A stretch of DNA of 47,862 bases from Candidatus Woesebacteria bacterium (GCA_040006915.1 JBDTWD010000002.1:108613-156474), one strand, 5' to 3'. Positions 2,667-10,358 are shown, numbered from the stretch's first letter. Notes: a model not told the origin generated them from the sequence alone. Translations and numbers: made by a program.

Positions 2667-2729
2667 CACTCCTGATTAGGATAGCAACGTGAAGTTTGTA
2701 CTGAAGGGAAACGGGAAAAAAAGATTTTG

Positions 2730-2802
2730 CAGGGCTACCTGGACTCGAACCAGGACGGAGGGTTTTGGAGACCCTAATGCTAACCAGTTACATCATAGCC
2801 CT
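2730..2802 (-). tRNA. trnW: tRNA-Trp(CCA)
   Basis: AGGGCTA/TAGCCCT acceptor stem, anticodon loop CTCCAAA, T-loop GGTTCGAGTCC; CCA not encoded. Confidence 0.95.
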
Positions 2803-2806
2803 ATGA

Positions 2807-3460
2807 TCAAATCATAGTATGCAGCGTAGTATAAAGCCAAGTAAGCTCTTTCGCAATTTTTACGTCATAGTAGTAAATAGTAATACATCCCATATATCCC
2901 TCTTTTTTTGATAGGCCTGCATTCAGCTTTCGATATGATCTATTAAATTGAGATAAAGGAATCCCAGTTATTTTTGACCAGTATTCTTTTACTTTTTCGT
3001 CGTCATGATAGTGATGGATATGCACATTAACTTTAAACTTGGAATCATTAATTTCGAAGCCTTTTCTCAGCAGAGTTAGGAATGTATGAATCATTAATGG
3101 GTCTGAGTTAATAAAACGCATTGAAGAACTTTTCTTCGCTCCTTGAGCCCAATATAATAATGCACAGAAAATTTTTATAGAAGATATATCGACAGACAAG
3201 CTCTTGAGGCTTAAATTGGCCTTCACCTTAATGAGTTCATTTTCTTTATCTCTTCTTTTTTTTAAAGTAAGCCTGCCTAACCTCCTCCCTTCAATCGTAT
3301 TGTTCATTAATTTTCGTTTTGCGTCATCCGATAATATAATATTTCGTACCCAGTAATACACTGTCCCTCTCGGCACAGCATAGAGTTTTGCTAACTCTAC
3401 TGCGCTCGTTCCTTGTAGACGTTTTTCCTCTATTTCTTTCCGCTTTTTTAAATCATGCAT
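2807..3460 (-). CDS. HTH + single-motif LAGLIDADG-like protein, immediately upstream of tRNA-Trp
   Basis: N-terminal HTH (AVELAKLYAVPRGTVYYWV); CALLYWAQG, RFINSDP..I..F, YWSKITGIP..QF. Homologous to 6033..6635. Confidence 0.65.
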   Translation of the reverse strand: MHDLKKRKEIEEKRLQGTSAVELAKLYAVPRGTVYYWVRNIILSDDAKRKLMNNTIEGRRLGRLTLKKRRDKENELIKVKANLSLKSLSVDISSIKIFCALLYWAQGAKKSSSMRFINSDPLMIHTFLTLLRKGFEINDSKFKVNVHIHHYHDDEKVKEYWSKITGIPLSQFNRSYRKLNAGLSKKEGYMGCITIYYYDVKIAKELTWLYTTLHTMI

Positions 3461-3528
3461 AAGTCTTATGTAACACTTTATGTATATTCATAATAATCAA
3501 AATAGTTTTCTCGTGCAATACTTACTAC

Positions 3529-4839
3529 ATGGACATTTTTGAAAATAATTCGCTGCTTTTAAAAGACAAAAAAAACTTGGAACAGACTCCTATCCCCGTG
3601 GTCACTGTAGCTGCTAGCTTTCGAGATGAACTCGCCCGCTATCATGGTGTCAAAGAATATTTCGGTGACGTTGAAGATGAAGTACTGTTCTCTCGTGCGC
3701 ATTACAGCATGGCACTCGCTGCTCTCGTTTGCGCTTGGGGAGGAATTAAACCTGATCCTAAAAAAGCCTGGGGAGTAGATCCTACCAATTATGTGACCAG
3801 ACAAGATTGGGGAAAACTCGAATTTACTGAAGAAGTGGGACAACTTATGGCGCGAAACAGTTTCTTAAAATGGGTCAAGGACCTTATCGATACTAAAGTC
3901 CGCCAAAAGTTACCGATTACAGGAGCGATCGCCACTCCCCTCCTTATGCTGTTTGAACGAGTTCATCGTCCTATCCTCTCCTTTCATTACGAGACTGGGA
4001 ATCTCTTGATTGGTGCCGGAAAACAAGTCGTGCAAGTGGTGACAGACCCACACGTACGACCCCAGTATCTAGAACATGCGGAACGACCAACCATTCGCTA
4101 CTGTGTCTTTGACGAAAAAACCAGAACCGATATGTTAGAGCTTGCAGAAGTAATGGGCAAAGATTTGGATCCTAAACGTGTGGTTGTGACTGGGCCACCG
4201 GTTGATCCTCGAATTGTGGCGGCCAGAAAAAAGAAATCACCGACTGCATATACAAAAAGGCCAGTAAGGCTGGTTATTACAACCGGGGGATTAGGAACCA
4301 ATAAAAAAGAAATAGAAACTTGTTTTCGTTCTCTTGCTCCCCTGCTTCGTCACGCAAAGATTCAGCTGATTGTATACGTCGGAGTCCATGAGGACATTCG
4401 TGAGATGATTCATCAAATCGCCAAACAGGAAGGAATTCCTACTGCTGAAAAACATCACGTCGAAGCTCCTTTGCGCATCTTTCATTCACCTCACATCGTG
4501 CAAGCCAATGAAATGCTCATACAATATGCCTTTCCTTGGGCAGATGGCTTCATCACCAAACCAAGTGGAGATATGGCATATGATGCCGCAGCAGCAGGTT
4601 GTTTTCTGTTGACCTTAGAACCTTGGGGAGAGTGGGAACACAATATCAGAGATATTTTTGAACAACGGGGAATATCCAGACGTGCAATTCCGGAGAAATT
4701 ACAGGAACAACTGGATAGCTTATTGACCGCTCATGGATCTCCAGCTTGGGCAGAAACCGCAATCGGTAACGCTTTGGCTTTGCCAAAACTATTCACAGAA
4801 GGAATTCAAAATATTTTGGATCAGATGCCTACAAGCTAA
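3529..4839 (+). CDS. GT-B glycosyltransferase (MurG/UgtP-like C-terminal domain)
   Basis: VVTDP, VTGPPVDP, ITTGGLG and DGFITKPSG motifs, typical of the UgtP/MGDG-synthase fold. Confidence 0.65.
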   Translation: MDIFENNSLLLKDKKNLEQTPIPVVTVAASFRDELARYHGVKEYFGDVEDEVLFSRAHYSMALAALVCAWGGIKPDPKKAWGVDPTNYVTRQDWGKLEFTEEVGQLMARNSFLKWVKDLIDTKVRQKLPITGAIATPLLMLFERVHRPILSFHYETGNLLIGAGKQVVQVVTDPHVRPQYLEHAERPTIRYCVFDEKTRTDMLELAEVMGKDLDPKRVVVTGPPVDPRIVAARKKKSPTAYTKRPVRLVITTGGLGTNKKEIETCFRSLAPLLRHAKIQLIVYVGVHEDIREMIHQIAKQEGIPTAEKHHVEAPLRIFHSPHIVQANEMLIQYAFPWADGFITKPSGDMAYDAAAAGCFLLTLEPWGEWEHNIRDIFEQRGISRRAIPEKLQEQLDSLLTAHGSPAWAETAIGNALALPKLFTEGIQNILDQMPTS

Positions 4840-4847
4840 TCTTCTTT

Positions 4848-5579
4848 TCACAATTTTCTTTCAATGGCACCCACAATTGCACAATGATCACTCACCCCAT
4901 CAATGACACGAACATCATTTACTGTGATGGACTTGTCTGTAAAGAAACCATCAACCATATACTGCAGACCTTTAACTCTATGTAAATTTTGATCAATAGA
5001 AGTTGTTATATCTTTAGGGACATTGTCCGTAAAATGAGTTGCAAGTGTATCAAAGATTTCTTTTCCACGCGGAGCATTAAAATCTCCACAGAGAACATCT
5101 GGTTCTACATCTTGAAGAGATTCAAGCAAGTTCTTCAAATCACCACGCTGGAGAGCAGTAACGCTGCCATTAGGAGACCAGGTAAAGTGGGTAGTGGCTA
5201 TTCTAAAGGTTTCTCCATCTTTCTGTACATCTACCCACAACAATCCTCTTCTTTCCCCTCCTGGTGATGAGTCATGAATTGACGTATCAACAGGCTGACT
5301 TTCATAGTAGCAAGATCCTGATTGAACAACCGGAAGTTTAGAGAAAACGACAACCCCCTCGATCCCCTTTTTGGCTTTGCGATACGGATTATCGGCTGTC
5401 ACGTTGCTTAATGGCAAAAAAACATACTCCATATGGAGCTGTTCTTGAAGATGAGGAAGATCTACTTTATAGACTTCCTGCATGCAAATCACATCAGGGT
5501 TTTCTTTTTGAACAAACGGAAAAATTGTATCGTAGTGATTATCACCTTCGATATTGAGAGTCAGAAGTTTGAGCGCCAT
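4848..5579 (-). CDS. Endonuclease/exonuclease/phosphatase (EEP) family protein
   Basis: TLNI, PDVICMQEV, TTH, LCGDFN and SDH motifs. Confidence 0.9.
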   Translation of the reverse strand: MALKLLTLNIEGDNHYDTIFPFVQKENPDVICMQEVYKVDLPHLQEQLHMEYVFLPLSNVTADNPYRKAKKGIEGVVVFSKLPVVQSGSCYYESQPVDTSIHDSSPGGERRGLLWVDVQKDGETFRIATTHFTWSPNGSVTALQRGDLKNLLESLQDVEPDVLCGDFNAPRGKEIFDTLATHFTDNVPKDITTSIDQNLHRVKGLQYMVDGFFTDKSITVNDVRVIDGVSDHCAIVGAIERKL

Positions 5580-5591
5580 AACGACAACTCA

Positions 5592-5783
5592 TTATTTTAA
5601 CTTCTCTACCTCTTTGTGCAACACATGTTTACGCAGGATGTTATCATACTTCATTAGCTCGAGTTTCCCCTTGCCTTTTTCCTGTTGGTTTCTTTTGTTG
5701 CGTGTCGTGTAGTGAGTAATGTGACCACTCTCAGTGCTTTTTAATGCAACTGTTCCGCGTGGTCCCTTTTTTGCTTTAGCCAT
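5592..5783 (-). CDS. rpmG: 50S ribosomal protein L33 (Cys-free form)
   Basis: LKSTESGH..YTTRNKRN...KLELMKYD..LRKHVLHKE. Confidence 0.95.
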   Translation of the reverse strand: MAKAKKGPRGTVALKSTESGHITHYTTRNKRNQQEKGKGKLELMKYDNILRKHVLHKEVEKLK

Positions 5784-5844
5784 AAAAATCCTTCTGTACT
5801 GTAATTCTCAAGAGAATGTATTGTATCACACCTCTAGAGAAGTG

Positions 5845-5917
5845 AGCCACCTCAGGGACTCGAACCCTGGACCACCTGTTTACAAAACAGGTGCTCTACC
5901 AGCTGAGCTAAGGTGGC
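5845..5917 (-). tRNA. trnT: tRNA-Thr(TGT)
   Basis: GCCACCT/AGGTGGC acceptor, anticodon loop TTTGTAA, GGTTCGAGTCC. Confidence 0.95.
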
Positions 5918-6032
5918 AAGTACGAACCAGTATTCTACCAGAGAAAGTCACAACCAAAAAGGGAGAAATCGTTTGACAGCAAATCTAGAAACACATATTC
6001 TATATCTATTATAAGTAGCACTCTACCAAACA

Positions 6033-6635
6033 ATGAGTGAGGATTTCTCAAGCACTATACGGGATCTTTATAACTCTGGTTTATCTCTCGGAGGAATCAG
6101 CTTAAAACTCGGCTGTTCTCCCCATAAGGTAGTCTACTGGATGAGGAAACTTGATATCCCTCGAAGAAAACCGAGCGAAGCTCTTTATCTTAAATACAAT
6201 CCAAATGGAGATCCTTTTTTGATAAAAAAGATAACCACTACGGAAGATGCAAAACTCTTCGGTTTAGGGGTTGGCATATACTGGGGAGAGGGAGACAAAC
6301 GTTCAATCCATGCAACTAGAGTAGCAAATAGTGATCCAGAGTTAATTTTAACCTTTATTCACTTTTTAACAGCGCTTTGTGGAGTAAAAAAGGACAAAAT
6401 AAAGTGCAATATTGTTTGCTTTAATGATAGCAATATCCCAGATGTCGGAAGGTATTGGTCACAACTTCTCCAGATTCCAAAAGAGAAATTTGGTAAAATA
6501 GTACAAATCCCACCGCAGGGAAAAGGAAAATACCGCCGAAAATCTCAGTACGGTGTTTGCACAGCTAGCGTATATAATACAAAGTTCAAGCAGTGGATAA
6601 TGCAAGAAATCAGTGGTTTCTATTCGCCCAGATAG
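6033..6635 (+). CDS. HTH + single-motif LAGLIDADG-like protein whose stop codon lies inside tRNA-Thr(GGT)
   Basis: HTH (SLGGISLKLGCSPHKVVYWM); GVGIYWGEG, RVANSDPELILTF, YWSQLLQIP..KF. TTGACA-N17-TATTCT promoter at 5973..6001. Confidence 0.7.
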   Translation: MSEDFSSTIRDLYNSGLSLGGISLKLGCSPHKVVYWMRKLDIPRRKPSEALYLKYNPNGDPFLIKKITTTEDAKLFGLGVGIYWGEGDKRSIHATRVANSDPELILTFIHFLTALCGVKKDKIKCNIVCFNDSNIPDVGRYWSQLLQIPKEKFGKIVQIPPQGKGKYRRKSQYGVCTASVYNTKFKQWIMQEISGFYSPR

Positions 6636-6696
6636 TTCAGTGGCAGAACGTTTCCTTGGTAAGGAAATAACGGGAGTCCGATTCTCCCTCTGGGCT
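6626..6696 (+). tRNA. trnT: tRNA-Thr(GGT)
   Basis: GCCCAGA/TCTGGGC acceptor, anticodon arm TTTCC-TTGGTAA-GGAAA, T-arm GGGAG-TCCGATT-CTCCC. Confidence 0.9.
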
Positions 6697-6721
6697 CATC
6701 AAAGTATATACTGTATTTATT

Positions 6722-6804
6722 GCTGAGTTACTCAAGCGGTCAACGAGGGCAGACTGTAAATCTGCTGGCTTTAGCCTACGAAGGTTCGAATCCTTCACTC
6801 AGCA
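6722..6804 (+). tRNA. trnY: tRNA-Tyr(GTA)
   Basis: GCTGAGT/ACTCAGC acceptor, GCAGA-CTGTAAA-TCTGC, long variable arm, GGTTCGAATCC. Confidence 0.95.
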
Positions 6805-7026
6805 CAAACACCTCCGTCTCTCTTCAATATGAAAATGGCTCCCGTGAAGCTGAAGGGAAAAAGAACGTTTCCCCGCAAACAATCAGGTGGGTGCGCTGCC
6901 ATCATCAAAAAAGAATCCGGACTCCGCGCTCCCTGCGAAAGAAACTATCCGAGGAAAAATGGTTCCTTTTCCTTTTATTCATGCTCACGAGAGCCGGCCT
7001 TAGAATACGAAAAACCTCCTGAAAAA

Positions 7027-8308: not shown

Positions 8309-9178
8309 TCAAGAAAGGGCTGTTTTGACTTTGTCTGCGTATTTCTCATTCTCCAAGACAAATTTCAAGTGGGCCAAGAAATAGTTCTCGGGATCTCCCG
8401 TCGTCATCCATTCACCTTGAGTTTTACCCACCACAATACGTTGGGTTTTGGCAACATGAGTAATTGCATCAACGGTCCATAATTCTCCATCTTTACCCAA
8501 ACTTGTAGGGTTTAAGAATTCAAAGATAGTCGGTTTTAACAAATATCGACCGTAGGAAGCCAAGAGTGAAGGAGTTTCTTCTTTCTTTGGTTTCTCAATA
8601 ATATTATCTAATTCATTTTCAGTCCCGGCTTTCATGGAAATGATGCCGTATTTATCGACTACATTTGGGTCGACTGGTTGAGACATAATGATTCCCGCCA
8701 CACTTGGGTCACTGTCATACATATCAACCATTACTTTGGCATCTCCGACTGCGCCAAAGACAACGTCGTCAGAATACAAAACCAAGAACGCTTCTTCGGC
8801 TTCAACAAAAGCCTGAGCCGAAGCCACTGGTGATCCGTTTCCATAGGGAAAGGAAGGATCTTGAATGATCACAGAGATTTTCGGGAAATCCAAAACGTGT
8901 TGTACAGGCTCGTAGCGATCCTCTTTCCCTTGGCTTGCCAGAAGTTTTCGAATACGATTTACTCCATTATTAAAGTAATCTTCATAAATCGGTTTTCCTT
9001 CAGGAGTAGCGACAATGATGATCTCTTCAATTCCTGCATTGACGCACTCTTCAACTACAAACTGCATCACCGGACGATTACCAAATGGAAGCATTCCTTT
9101 CGGCACCGTCTTGGTCAACGGGAGGTAACGACTGGCAAATCCTGCGTCAGTGATAATAGCTTTTTTTACTTTGCTCAT
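8309..9178 (-). CDS. galU: UTP--glucose-1-phosphate uridylyltransferase-like sugar nucleotidyltransferase
   Basis: KKAIITDAGFASRYLPLTKTVPKGMLP, YGII, IEKP, GRYLL, GELWTVDAI. Confidence 0.8.
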   Translation of the reverse strand: MSKVKKAIITDAGFASRYLPLTKTVPKGMLPFGNRPVMQFVVEECVNAGIEEIIIVATPEGKPIYEDYFNNGVNRIRKLLASQGKEDRYEPVQHVLDFPKISVIIQDPSFPYGNGSPVASAQAFVEAEEAFLVLYSDDVVFGAVGDAKVMVDMYDSDPSVAGIIMSQPVDPNVVDKYGIISMKAGTENELDNIIEKPKKEETPSLLASYGRYLLKPTIFEFLNPTSLGKDGELWTVDAITHVAKTQRIVVGKTQGEWMTTGDPENYFLAHLKFVLENEKYADKVKTALS

Positions 9179-9305
9179 AACGATGCTCCTTTACATACGG
9201 GAGAGAGAAATTTATTATACCCCATTACTAATTCCACTTGCATTATCACTCTCATTCTTGCTACTGTTGATGAGTAGGATACTATATGTCTTGTACGTAA
9301 CTGTT

Positions 9306-10358
9306 ATGGATAAACGCATCATCATTGTTTTGGTTTTGGTTATTGTCATCGTTGCAGGTGTTGGCGGAGCTATGCTTCTCTTAAACCGCACACCGGCCAC
9401 GCCAGTAGCGACGCCGTTTCCATCCGCAACTCCTGCCGTCTCGGCCCAAACGCAACCTACATTAACAACCCAAATCTCATCACCACTTACTGCCAGTGGA
9501 TCCGCAACCATTGATGTGTACTTGGATACAAAAGCCACAAAAATTGATGGCTTCCAATTCATTGCAACGCTTAATGGTACCGCACTTCCAACGATTTCAG
9601 ATGCTGATTCGGGAACGGAAGGGACTCAAATCAGTCCAGAAAATATTCCAGAACTTACCACCTCGACCAATAATGTAACCGAACAAGATGGGGCTTTTGT
9701 AATTCGCTTCGCGATGGTTTCTAGTGACAGCACCCTCGGGTACTCCAACACTTCACCAACTAAAGTAGCGAGTATTCCCGTGTTAGCCGGATCGGGAGGA
9801 AATGTTACGCTCACCTTTAATCAGCAAAATTCCCGAGCTAGACTCTTAAGTGGTGGGGAAGACACCTTGGTCACCACGACAGATGGGACGTTCCCAGTCG
9901 CGAGTAGCGGAAGTAGCAGTACCCAAACCAGTGTCAGTACAGCATCTTCATCATTGCTTGCCCAAACCGCTGTTACGACCACACCAGCGCCAACAACTGC
10001 TGCGACGGCAACCACTTCACCGTTCTGTCTTGCTTCTTGTTTCTCTGATGGAGACTGTGCTGCAGGTCTCGCCTGTGAAACGGATCGTTGTGTAAATCCT
10101 GCTTGTCCAACCTCACAGACTTGTGGATGTGGAGCCAACCAAACCGCTCAAACCGTCACTACCACGCCTGTACCCACAGTGGTCGCTAGTGCTGCCGCCA
10201 CTCCTATTGTTGCCACTTCGGCTCCAATTGCTGAAGCTTCAAGCTCAGCGCAGGATTTGCCTACATCTGGTTCAGTAGAATATACGCTACTTGCCATTGG
10301 CGCGGGTTTGTTCCTCATTGGAGGAGGAGTACTCTTAACCGCTAAACAAGAAGCCTAA
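9306..10358 (+). CDS. Cell-surface protein: N-terminal TM, cohesin-like beta domain, Ser/Thr linkers, 8-Cys module, C-terminal LPTSG + TM
   Basis: Start moved to ATG 9306 (MDKRIIIVLV) to avoid overlap with galU; CLASCFSDGDCAAGLACETDRCVNPACPTSQTCGC; DLPTSG followed by a hydrophobic helix. Confidence 0.7.
   Translation: MDKRIIIVLVLVIVIVAGVGGAMLLLNRTPATPVATPFPSATPAVSAQTQPTLTTQISSPLTASGSATIDVYLDTKATKIDGFQFIATLNGTALPTISDADSGTEGTQISPENIPELTTSTNNVTEQDGAFVIRFAMVSSDSTLGYSNTSPTKVASIPVLAGSGGNVTLTFNQQNSRARLLSGGEDTLVTTTDGTFPVASSGSSSTQTSVSTASSSLLAQTAVTTTPAPTTAATATTSPFCLASCFSDGDCAAGLACETDRCVNPACPTSQTCGCGANQTAQTVTTTPVPTVVASAAATPIVATSAPIAEASSSAQDLPTSGSVEYTLLAIGAGLFLIGGGVLLTAKQEA

Follow-up and report, generated by a model that had tools for sequence, protein, structure and literature searches.

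LAGLIDADG enzymes have evolved from homodimers to monomers by fusion of two domains, and the same fold is found in WhiA, which has two degenerate LAGLIDADG domains and a C-terminal helix-turn-helix (HTH) and lacks a catalytic acid. In collaborative homing, a free-standing endonuclease is paired with a group I intron, as for mobE and nrd in phage Aeh1 and for F-CphI and psbA in cyanophage, while SegB of phage T4 reportedly promotes the inheritance of the adjoining tRNA region by co-conversion. SegB is called a phage homing endonuclease in PMC13096335. For the candidate phyla radiation (CPR), two further sources describe insertion sequences and LAGLIDADG enzymes in rRNA genes (PMC11270868), and group I introns in some tRNAs together with homing endonuclease genes between rRNA genes (PMC8172020). 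Here, we describe a protein family represented by two open-reading frames, ORF A and ORF B, in a 47,862-nt stretch of DNA from a Candidatus Woesebacteria bacterium (GCA_040006915.1 JBDTWD010000002.1:108613-156474), referred to below as the window. ORF A is joined to tRNA-Trp(CCA) and ORF B to tRNA-Thr(GGT), and we propose, with moderate confidence, that both are free-standing putative homing-endonuclease-type selfish genes that move with their tRNA, and that the family would constitute a new type combining an HTH with a single LAGLIDADG-like domain, each subfamily being dedicated to one tRNA gene. Neither the family nor the tRNA rule is described in the available portions of the two CPR sources, the term 'tRNA' does not occur in the text of PMC11270868, and the literature searched contained no description of the family or of a rule of one clade for one tRNA.

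The family resembles the homodimeric single-motif LAGLIDADG enzymes I-CreI, I-MsoI, I-CeuI and I-Vdi141I in having one LAGLIDADG-like domain of ~130 aa per chain, which opens with a helix ending in E-G, and the model of ORF B aligns with I-Vdi141I (Z 5.4), I-MsoI (4.7), I-CeuI (4.6) and I-CreI (4.3). Tandem-fused relatives also exist, mirroring the route by which such enzymes passed from homodimers to monomers. Unlike the single-motif enzymes, the family has no match to the Pfam LAGLIDADG models or in Foldseek, carries an additional helix and loop (YWSxxTxIP) between its third and fourth strands as well as an N-terminal HTH followed by a 40-residue helix, and is not intron- or intein-encoded; its polar residues K109, N118 and D120 are conserved, whereas the cores of the classic enzymes are weakly conserved. 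The best structural matches in both models are I-DmoI, E-DreI and intein endonuclease domains (TliVMA, PI-PfuI), which are two-domain monomers or parts of inteins and share only 9-15% identity with the family. The combination of a LAGLIDADG-like fold with an HTH is shared with WhiA (Z 6.0-6.9), but the family has one domain rather than two, its HTH is N-terminal, and the acid is retained in 259 of 262 aligned sequences, so that its members are not of WhiA type; WhiA is also a single-copy conserved gene that is not linked to tRNA. Like T4 segB, the family genes are free-standing and lie among or beside tRNA genes, but SegB is a phage-borne GIY-YIG enzyme that is not welded to one tRNA and has no family with a clade for each isotype. 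A parallel with collaborative homing is that, in many loci, the linked tRNA just 3′ of the family gene contains a group I intron with no ORF of its own. Most linked tRNAs, among them all four of the source genome of the window (G000), are nevertheless intron-less, which makes the tRNA, rather than the intron, the partner of the gene.

Linkage of the gene family to tRNA genes

Each of the two window ORFs is co-oriented with its own tRNA (Table 1; tRNA calls are those of ARAGORN, with six tRNAs in the window). ORF A has its stop codon (2807-2809) 4 nt away from the tRNA-Trp 5′ end (2802), while the last 10 nt of ORF B are the first 10 nt of tRNA-Thr(GGT), its TAG stop (6633-6635) coinciding with positions 8-10 of the tRNA. 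The original prediction, made from the sequence alone, had described one ORF ending 4 nt before tRNA-Trp and another ending inside tRNA-Thr(GGT), both in the direction of the tRNA, and this anatomy was confirmed in each respect. It had also held the two genes to be related yet highly diverged, in agreement with a BLASTP match of 28% identity over 118 aa (E 6e-12) and with the presence of the motifs that it quoted, which read LLYWAQGAK, INSDP and YWSKITGIPLSQF in ORF A and GIYWGEGDK, ANSDP and YWSQLLQIPKEKF in ORF B.

The source genome, G000, is that of a CPR (Patescibacteria) member and comprises 1,301,742 bp in 28 contigs with 96% completeness and 46 tRNA genes. Two paralogues are present besides ORF A and ORF B, one ending 1 nt inside tRNA-Ala(GGC) and the other (G000:C1:4672-5343), which keeps the motif acid, ending 15 nt inside tRNA-Gln(UUG). 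All four copies in the genome abut the 5′ end of a co-oriented tRNA, and no intron was found by ARAGORN in any of the four linked tRNAs. By our own arithmetic, the chance of a gene end falling within ±20 nt of a co-oriented tRNA 5′ end is ~7e-4, and that of all four paralogues abutting a tRNA is ~3e-13.

A search of 1.84 billion proteins with a profile of 42 sequences recovered 9,852 cluster representatives at E ≤ 1e-3, or 1,356 at the stricter E ≤ 1e-30. The C-terminal domain is not covered by any Pfam model, NCBIfam holds nothing relevant, and the one family member looked up at NCBI is named 'hypothetical protein'. Approximately 150 copies with flanking sequence were examined across CPR in four samples (order-level loci, named CPR loci, phylum-wide loci found with ORF B, and metagenome loci), and all but one adjoin a tRNA gene, bearing out the suggestion that homologues would be enriched beside tRNAs. 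In the order-level sample of 30 loci, 26 ORFs end between −93 and +31 nt from a co-oriented tRNA called by ARAGORN, two precede tRNAs split by group I introns, one lies at a contig end, and one (L036) is a true exception in which a DprA-like gene instead of a tRNA follows the family ORF. The 80 named CPR loci, which include Woese-, Gottesman-, Davies-, Roizman-, Magasanik-, Uhr- and Moranbacteria, Saccharibacteria, WWE3 and Peribacteria, were found with a narrow alignment of tRNA-Trp type (A2), so that this sample is biased to the tRNA-Trp subfamily. Among them, 76 abut tRNA-Trp(CCA) and the other four are at locus ends; for 64 of the 76, the reading frame terminates within the tRNA, and the commonest offsets of the ORF end are −10 (23 loci), −15 (14) and −2 (7). 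The same loci hold four further family ORFs, each of them against a tRNA: L132_0 abuts an intron-less tRNA-Thr(GGT), and the other three abut intron-containing tRNA-Thr or tRNA-Tyr.

When ORF B was searched in 300 genomes spread over the phylum (E ≤ 1e-8), matches were obtained in 49 of 301 phylum-level genomes, and its closest relatives adjoin tRNA-Thr(GGT). Among the best-matching loci (L152-L180), all 28 with a hidden Markov model (HMM) hit are linked to tRNA genes, 16 to plain tRNAs and 12 to intron-split tRNAs missed by default ARAGORN, the introns being ~190-250 nt long, located in the anticodon loop and in several cases confirmed as group I by Rfam RF00028. Two of the ten metagenome loci are of low-G+C tRNA-Trp type and co-oriented, and eight come from G+C-rich organisms (62-69% G+C) in which the gene end lies against tRNA-Gln(UUG) in every instance, convergent at the tRNA 3′ end in seven and co-oriented at 70 nt in one. 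The 5′-flank position proposed in the original prediction as the homing site thus holds for most copies but not for the convergent loci of this branch. Because the convergent tRNA-Gln branch exists, the common denominator is the tRNA gene rather than a transcriptional arrangement. A tblastn search of 50,697 phage records with ORF B gave no match, and no relative was confirmed in IMG/VR with alignment A2 as the query.

A maximum-likelihood tree was built from 75 near-full-length proteins, comprising all such sequences from L009-L038, L002, L005 and L152-L180 and a random 18 of the 80 tRNA-Trp loci, with shorter pieces excluded. Its clades correspond to Trp, Ala-GGC, Val-GAC, Gln-UUG, Ile-UAU, Tyr and Thr-GGT (intron-containing and intron-less), in addition to two or three Gly-GCC/Phe groups. 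The tRNA labels change 27 times on the tree, against a minimum of 19 and a mean of 54.7 for shuffled labels, with none of 200 shuffles as low. Protein clades thus track tRNA identity, a pattern that the original prediction had put forward for examination. Members of the window's taxonomic family group together in the clades for Ala, Gln and Trp, and topology within clades looks congruent with taxonomy, so much of the inheritance looks to be vertical.

ORF-less group I introns of ~190-310 nt in the anticodon loop were observed in many CPR tRNA genes (RF00028 in seven places), including tRNA-Thr GGT in L154, L155, L157, L159, L162 and L163, tRNA-Tyr in L168 and L070, tRNA-Phe GAA in L176 and L179, and further genes in L012, L014 and L177. 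Such tRNAs are missed by ARAGORN in its default mode, and its intron mode often misplaces the anticodon. A comparison by eye of tRNA-Thr(GGT) genes that were occupied, intron-bearing or empty revealed no pattern in their anticodon stems. In one locus (L161:2092-2230), at least three tandem units of ~37 nt, each beginning like the tRNA 5′ end (GCCGTTGTAGCTG...), lie between the family ORF and an intron-bearing tRNA, and these may be a scar of repeated break repair.

A LAGLIDADG-like domain with a conserved acid

A full-length model of ORF A was generated with AlphaFold2 from a 42-sequence alignment (A1; pLDDT 94.3) and consists of a three-helix HTH (residues 4-38), a 42-residue helix (45-86) and an alpha/beta domain (92-216). 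In ORF B, the HTH lies at about residues 8-40 and the LAGLIDADG-like domain at residues 68-200, and the domain was modelled from a 57-sequence alignment (pLDDT 94.0, pTM 0.86). Structural neighbours were sought among 48,161 chains with VIA-align, on whose own scale a Z of 7-8 is 'middling' and which warns that a Z under 8 can reflect a common arrangement. The six best matches to residues 89-217 of ORF A are all LAGLIDADG proteins, namely I-DmoI (2vs8; Z 7.4, rmsd 2.2 over 80 aa), E-DreI (Z 7.2), an intein endonuclease (Z 7.0) and three entries of WhiA (Z 6.7, 6.5 and 6.2). For ORF B, LAGLIDADG proteins make up 9 of the 13 chains at Z ≥ 5, with matches to the intein homing endonuclease 7qsu (Z 8.2, rmsd 3.5 over 82 aa; the only chain at Z ≥ 8), I-DmoI (Z 7.2), WhiA (Z 6.9), E-DreI (Z 6.7) and I-Tsp061I (Z 6.1). 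The LAGLIDADG alignments span 80-90 residues at an rmsd of 2.2-3.6 in both models, and DSSP places an inserted helix between later strands in each. At the sequence level, a profile search of PDB sequences matches I-DmoI weakly (E 0.21), while Pfam LAGLIDADG_1/2/3 and LAGLIDADG_WhiA match neither the two window proteins nor the 42 members of A1, which match HTH families only, the matches of the window proteins being weak and sub-threshold. On the basis of these models, the C-terminal domain is predicted with moderate confidence to be a divergent LAGLIDADG-type domain with an inserted helix, in support of the fold originally proposed and at Z-scores that are moderate. The HTH of ORF A resembles those of IstA, resolvases and Tc3 (Z ~6).

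The domain of ORF A opens with a helix (residues 92-106) that ends in (E/Q)106-G107. Across the 262 aligned sequences, the column of the motif acid holds E in 256, D in three, Q in two (both ORF A) and G in one; G107 is kept in 257, K109, N118 and D120 are conserved in 94-98%, and W161 and G191 are nearly invariant, as R14, G17 and W37 of the HTH are strongly conserved. The motif acid of ORF B is intact, and ORF A, with a glutamine in its place, is probably catalytically impaired and may be an inactive copy. The tandem fusions of two units noted above occur naturally and are 396-576 aa long (for example P0135, P0141, P0165 and P0180).

Presence, change of the linked tRNA and expression signals

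The family is present in 22 of 41 order-level genomes and the other 19 have no match at E ≤ 1e-5, with the number of matches per genome ranging from 0 to 8. Split, frameshifted or fragmentary copies were found in G002, G012, G009, G014, G024, G027 and G271. A genome of the same genus as the window, G001, has the Gln copy only, and its Trp, Thr(GGT) and Ala(GGC) sites are empty, supplying the empty alleles in relatives that the original prediction had called for. The ORFs are free-standing, in that they lie between genes, beside their presumed target gene, and are present or absent among relatives. In a separate observation, G279, a CPR genome of 0.6 Mb, has eight family matches, which is very many for so small a genome.

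At the Trp site, the 68-nt spacer upstream of ORF A in G000 runs directly into tRNA-Trp in G001, and the gene downstream of tRNA-Trp is unrelated between the two genomes. The upstream boundary at this site is sharp, but a clean insertion of exactly ORF A was rejected, as the tRNA type and the downstream gene differ as well. At the Thr site, two divergent Thr tRNAs lie 75 nt apart in G001, and the pair is inverted in G000. Between the same flanking genes, for a small membrane protein and obg, tRNA-Ala(GGC) lies on opposite strands in the two genomes (L002:1389-1462 compared with L192:1988-2059), with the family ORF at the 5′ end of the G000 tRNA. Seven tRNAs were compared between G000 and G001, a single pair of genomes that are ~67% identical in DNA. 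The three with a family gene in neither genome are 100% (tRNA-Tyr), 93% (tRNA-Ala-CGC) and 91% (tRNA-Thr-UGU) identical, compared to 63% (tRNA-Trp), 65% (tRNA-Thr-GGU) and 89% (tRNA-Ala-GGC) for those with a family gene in G000 only and 79% for tRNA-Gln-UUG, with a family gene in both. As the linked tRNAs are diverged or inverted, gene and tRNA behave as one unit, exchanged or rearranged jointly. Within one genus and one family of genomes, two very different sequences of tRNA-Trp, with acceptor and D-arm AGGGCTATGATG... and AGGGGCGTAGTT..., were also observed (window 2729-2802 compared with L039:1357-1428).

A −10 hexamer ending 5-16 nt upstream of +1 is present in 27 of the 35 lone tRNAs of G000 and in 21 of 120 ORF-preceded tRNAs. 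An extended −10 (TGGTAnAAT) near +1 is typical of the lone tRNAs, with TGn in 17 of the 27 compared to only 3 of the 21. This pattern suggests that many linked tRNAs rely on transcripts that run through the ORF. A secondary cluster of −10 hexamers 17-20 nt upstream, found in 32 of the 120 ORF-preceded tRNAs, coincides with conserved L-Y-N codons. In the window region, promoter-like sites are no more numerous than in shuffles; the site within the final codons of ORF A has a −10 that ends 8 nt before the +1 of tRNA-Trp, and the position of the extended −10-like element in the spacer is compatible with a leaderless ORF A mRNA. A Shine-Dalgarno-like core precedes 4 of 118 family ORFs and 22 of the 118 have a −10 whose end lies exactly 6 nt upstream of the ATG, while among 653 long ORFs of G000 the core is present in 102 and a −10 ends 6-8 nt before the ATG in 90. 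Leaderless starts were therefore dropped as a family trait, the genome at large behaving similarly, and leaderless translation seems to be common in this organism. Many family ORFs are preceded by a GGTTATATAAC-like palindrome and by an inverted repeat (cGAACC...GGTTcg) around the −10 region, a pattern noted by eye (for example in L066, L068, L070, L090, L099 and L003:1420-1473); these elements could be operators or remnants of target sites.

Table 1 Features of the window around ORF A and ORF B, with positions counted from the first nucleotide of the window
Feature	Position	Strand	Remark
tRNA-Trp(CCA)	2729..2802	-	ARAGORN; sole tRNA-Trp called in the genome; linked to ORF A
Promoter-like TTGGCT-18-TATGAT	2811..2840	-	In the last ORF A codons; 9/12 matches
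ORF A, 217 aa	2807..3460	-	Member of the tRNA-Trp-linked subfamily
Codon CAA, Q106 of ORF A	3143..3145	-	Position of the LAGLIDADG-motif acid
Spacer, 68 nt	3461..3528	-	Separates ORF A from the divergent gene at 3529
Extended −10-like TGtTACATA	3467-3475	-	In the 68-nt spacer; ends 6 nt before the ORF A ATG
tRNA-Thr(TGT)	5844..5917	-	ARAGORN; divergent from ORF B
Promoter-like TTGACA-17-TATTCT	5973..6001	+	31 nt upstream of the ORF B start; 10/12 matches
ORF B, 200 aa	6033..6635	+	Member of the tRNA-Thr(GGT)-linked subfamily
Motif acid E86 of ORF B	6288-6290	+	Intact
tRNA-Thr(GGT)	6626..6697	+	ARAGORN; linked to ORF B
tRNA-Tyr(GTA)	6722..6805	+	ARAGORN; next gene 3′ of tRNA-Thr(GGT), same strand
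402-aa Thr/Ser/Pro-rich protein	9150-10358	+	C-terminal ...DLPTSG, then a hydrophobic stretch and basic residues

Two features lie apart from these loci. The C-terminus of the 402-aa protein of the window looks like an LPXTG-type sortase sorting signal and, outside the window (G000:C7:46010-46095), ARAGORN calls a tRNA-Ser with the unusual anticodon ACT beside a normal tRNA-Ser(GCT).

Competing readings and a proposed mechanism

The data favour selfish elements as the more probable reading over a regulator or a maturase, because presence is patchy, sites in the same genus are empty, copies are decayed, the acid is conserved and tandem-fused relatives exist. The main rival, which we regard as rather unlikely, is that the proteins are domesticated WhiA-like DNA-binding regulators that bind their own promoter or the tRNA gene, tune tRNA transcription, and are inherited vertically and sometimes lost. 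Such a role would be in keeping with the high rank of WhiA as a structural match to both models (Z 6.7 and 6.9), with the strongly conserved HTH residues and the apparent congruence of clades with taxonomy, and with the intact tRNA-Trp-linked copies across the phylum (76 of 80); ORF A, moreover, is without the acid yet otherwise intact, and the palindromes and inverted repeats seen by eye near the −10 could serve as operators. It fits poorly with the near-universal retention of the motif acid, with a gene that is missing from three of four sites in G001 and from 19 of 41 order-level genomes, with a copy number that varies from 0 to 8, and with the commonness of decayed copies. Regulation would also leave unexplained why linked tRNAs are replaced or inverted and why the genes stand tail-to-tail with tRNA-Gln in the G+C-rich branch.

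LAGLIDADG proteins can act as maturases of group I introns, and a second rival, to which we give a low probability, is an RNA-level maturase or chaperone-like factor for the linked pre-tRNA or its group I intron, translated from the tRNA 5′ leader. The linked tRNA does carry a group I intron at 12 of the 28 ORF B-centred loci and at several others, but at none of the 76 tRNA-Trp-linked loci, where ARAGORN calls plain tRNAs, and at none of the four loci of G000, and intron-containing and intron-less rows intermingle in the Thr clade. The overlap of ORF and tRNA, with most linked tRNAs having no close promoter, would place the protein beside its RNA as it is made, and clades that track tRNA identity agree with this; in the G+C-rich branch, however, co-transcription is excluded by the convergent arrangement with tRNA-Gln, and the resolvase/transposase-type HTH points to DNA. 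Passive adjacency, in which an ordinary small gene family sits in tRNA-rich regions of compact CPR genomes where leaderless starts and weak Shine-Dalgarno use are genome-wide and abutment is a matter of compaction, is scarcely credible given one exception among ~150 copies, the same orientation and a −15 to +11 nt offset recurring across the whole phylum, isotype-specific clades and the chance estimate for G000 alone.

Several results weigh against free-standing selfish nucleases. Conservation of the family is unusually strong for a selfish nuclease, ORF A itself has no motif acid, and the congruence within clades fits long vertical residence and possibly a host function. A Foldseek match to LAGLIDADG, which the original prediction had looked to for confirmation, did not materialise: searches of the PDB with full-length and domain models returned no LAGLIDADG protein and nothing at E ≤ 1e-3, and the best VIA-align Z-scores are moderate (7.4 and 8.2). 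The best Foldseek rows, OmpA-like or IspF-like (E 1e-3 to 3e-3, TM ~0.2-0.4), were treated as non-specific. The comparison of linked and unlinked tRNAs covers seven tRNAs in one genome pair, and the two types of tRNA-Trp do not sort by occupancy, with 3 occupied and 10 empty sites for one and 1 occupied and 2 empty for the other, so that a simple model of an 'immune tRNA allele' is not supported. No empty allele was found in four DNA runs of one study, in which no contig spanned either ORF A or ORF B and the fragments, from the same strain, showed no differences. Co-transcription is not established, given the −10-like hexamers at 17-20 nt and the site inside ORF A, which could be tRNA-Trp's own promoter.

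Under the selfish-element reading, we infer nuclease activity and homing at a target site in or next to the tRNA gene. The protein would probably act as a homodimer that recognises and cuts the DNA of the tRNA gene, or the junction of promoter and tRNA, in alleles without the family gene, and repair of the break would copy both the endonuclease gene and the tRNA allele next to it, the two behaving as one cassette. With no gap between gene and tRNA, and a stop codon that the tRNA often provides, the two would be protected from separation by recombination. Such an insertion site would be tolerated, as RNase P trims everything 5′ of tRNA position +1, and many linked tRNAs, apparently without a close promoter of their own, would be transcribed behind the ORF.

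A more far-reaching form of this proposal, which we offer tentatively and consider doubtful, is that gene and tRNA together form a self-propagating 'tRNA-replacement cassette' that cuts rival alleles, installs its own tRNA and is made as the coding 5′ leader of that tRNA. The nuclease of a given subfamily would cleave the rival alleles of a single tRNA gene, and linked tRNAs would be fast-changing and sometimes inverted because repair installs the cassette's own tRNA allele. With its reading frame serving as the 5′ leader of the tRNA, the nuclease would terminate at a TAG stop formed by the conserved tRNA positions U8-A9-G10, and because this stop codon lies within the tRNA, the RNase P cut would leave a non-stop mRNA, which may limit the nuclease dose. 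An RNase P RNA (95.8 bits, E 2.9e-30, just under the Rfam cut-off) and tmRNA are both present in G000, and the machinery for the leader and non-stop ideas therefore exists.

The family presents a strict genomic rule, with one clade per tRNA and the end of the gene welded to the tRNA. This has a practical side for annotation, since gene callers and tRNA finders clash where ORF and tRNA overlap and default ARAGORN misses intron-split tRNAs behind family genes. If the family consists of regulators, these would be the first transcription factors of such a kind to be specific to individual tRNA genes. If they are nucleases, they would provide a compact (~200 aa), ready-made set of enzymes with different long DNA targets, and could explain the high variation of some CPR tRNA genes between close relatives. 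Should the cassette proposal be true, the family would amount to a natural nuclease library covering about a dozen or more distinct tRNA-gene specificities, and the tRNA genes of CPR bacteria would have been shaped by a dedicated class of selfish elements.

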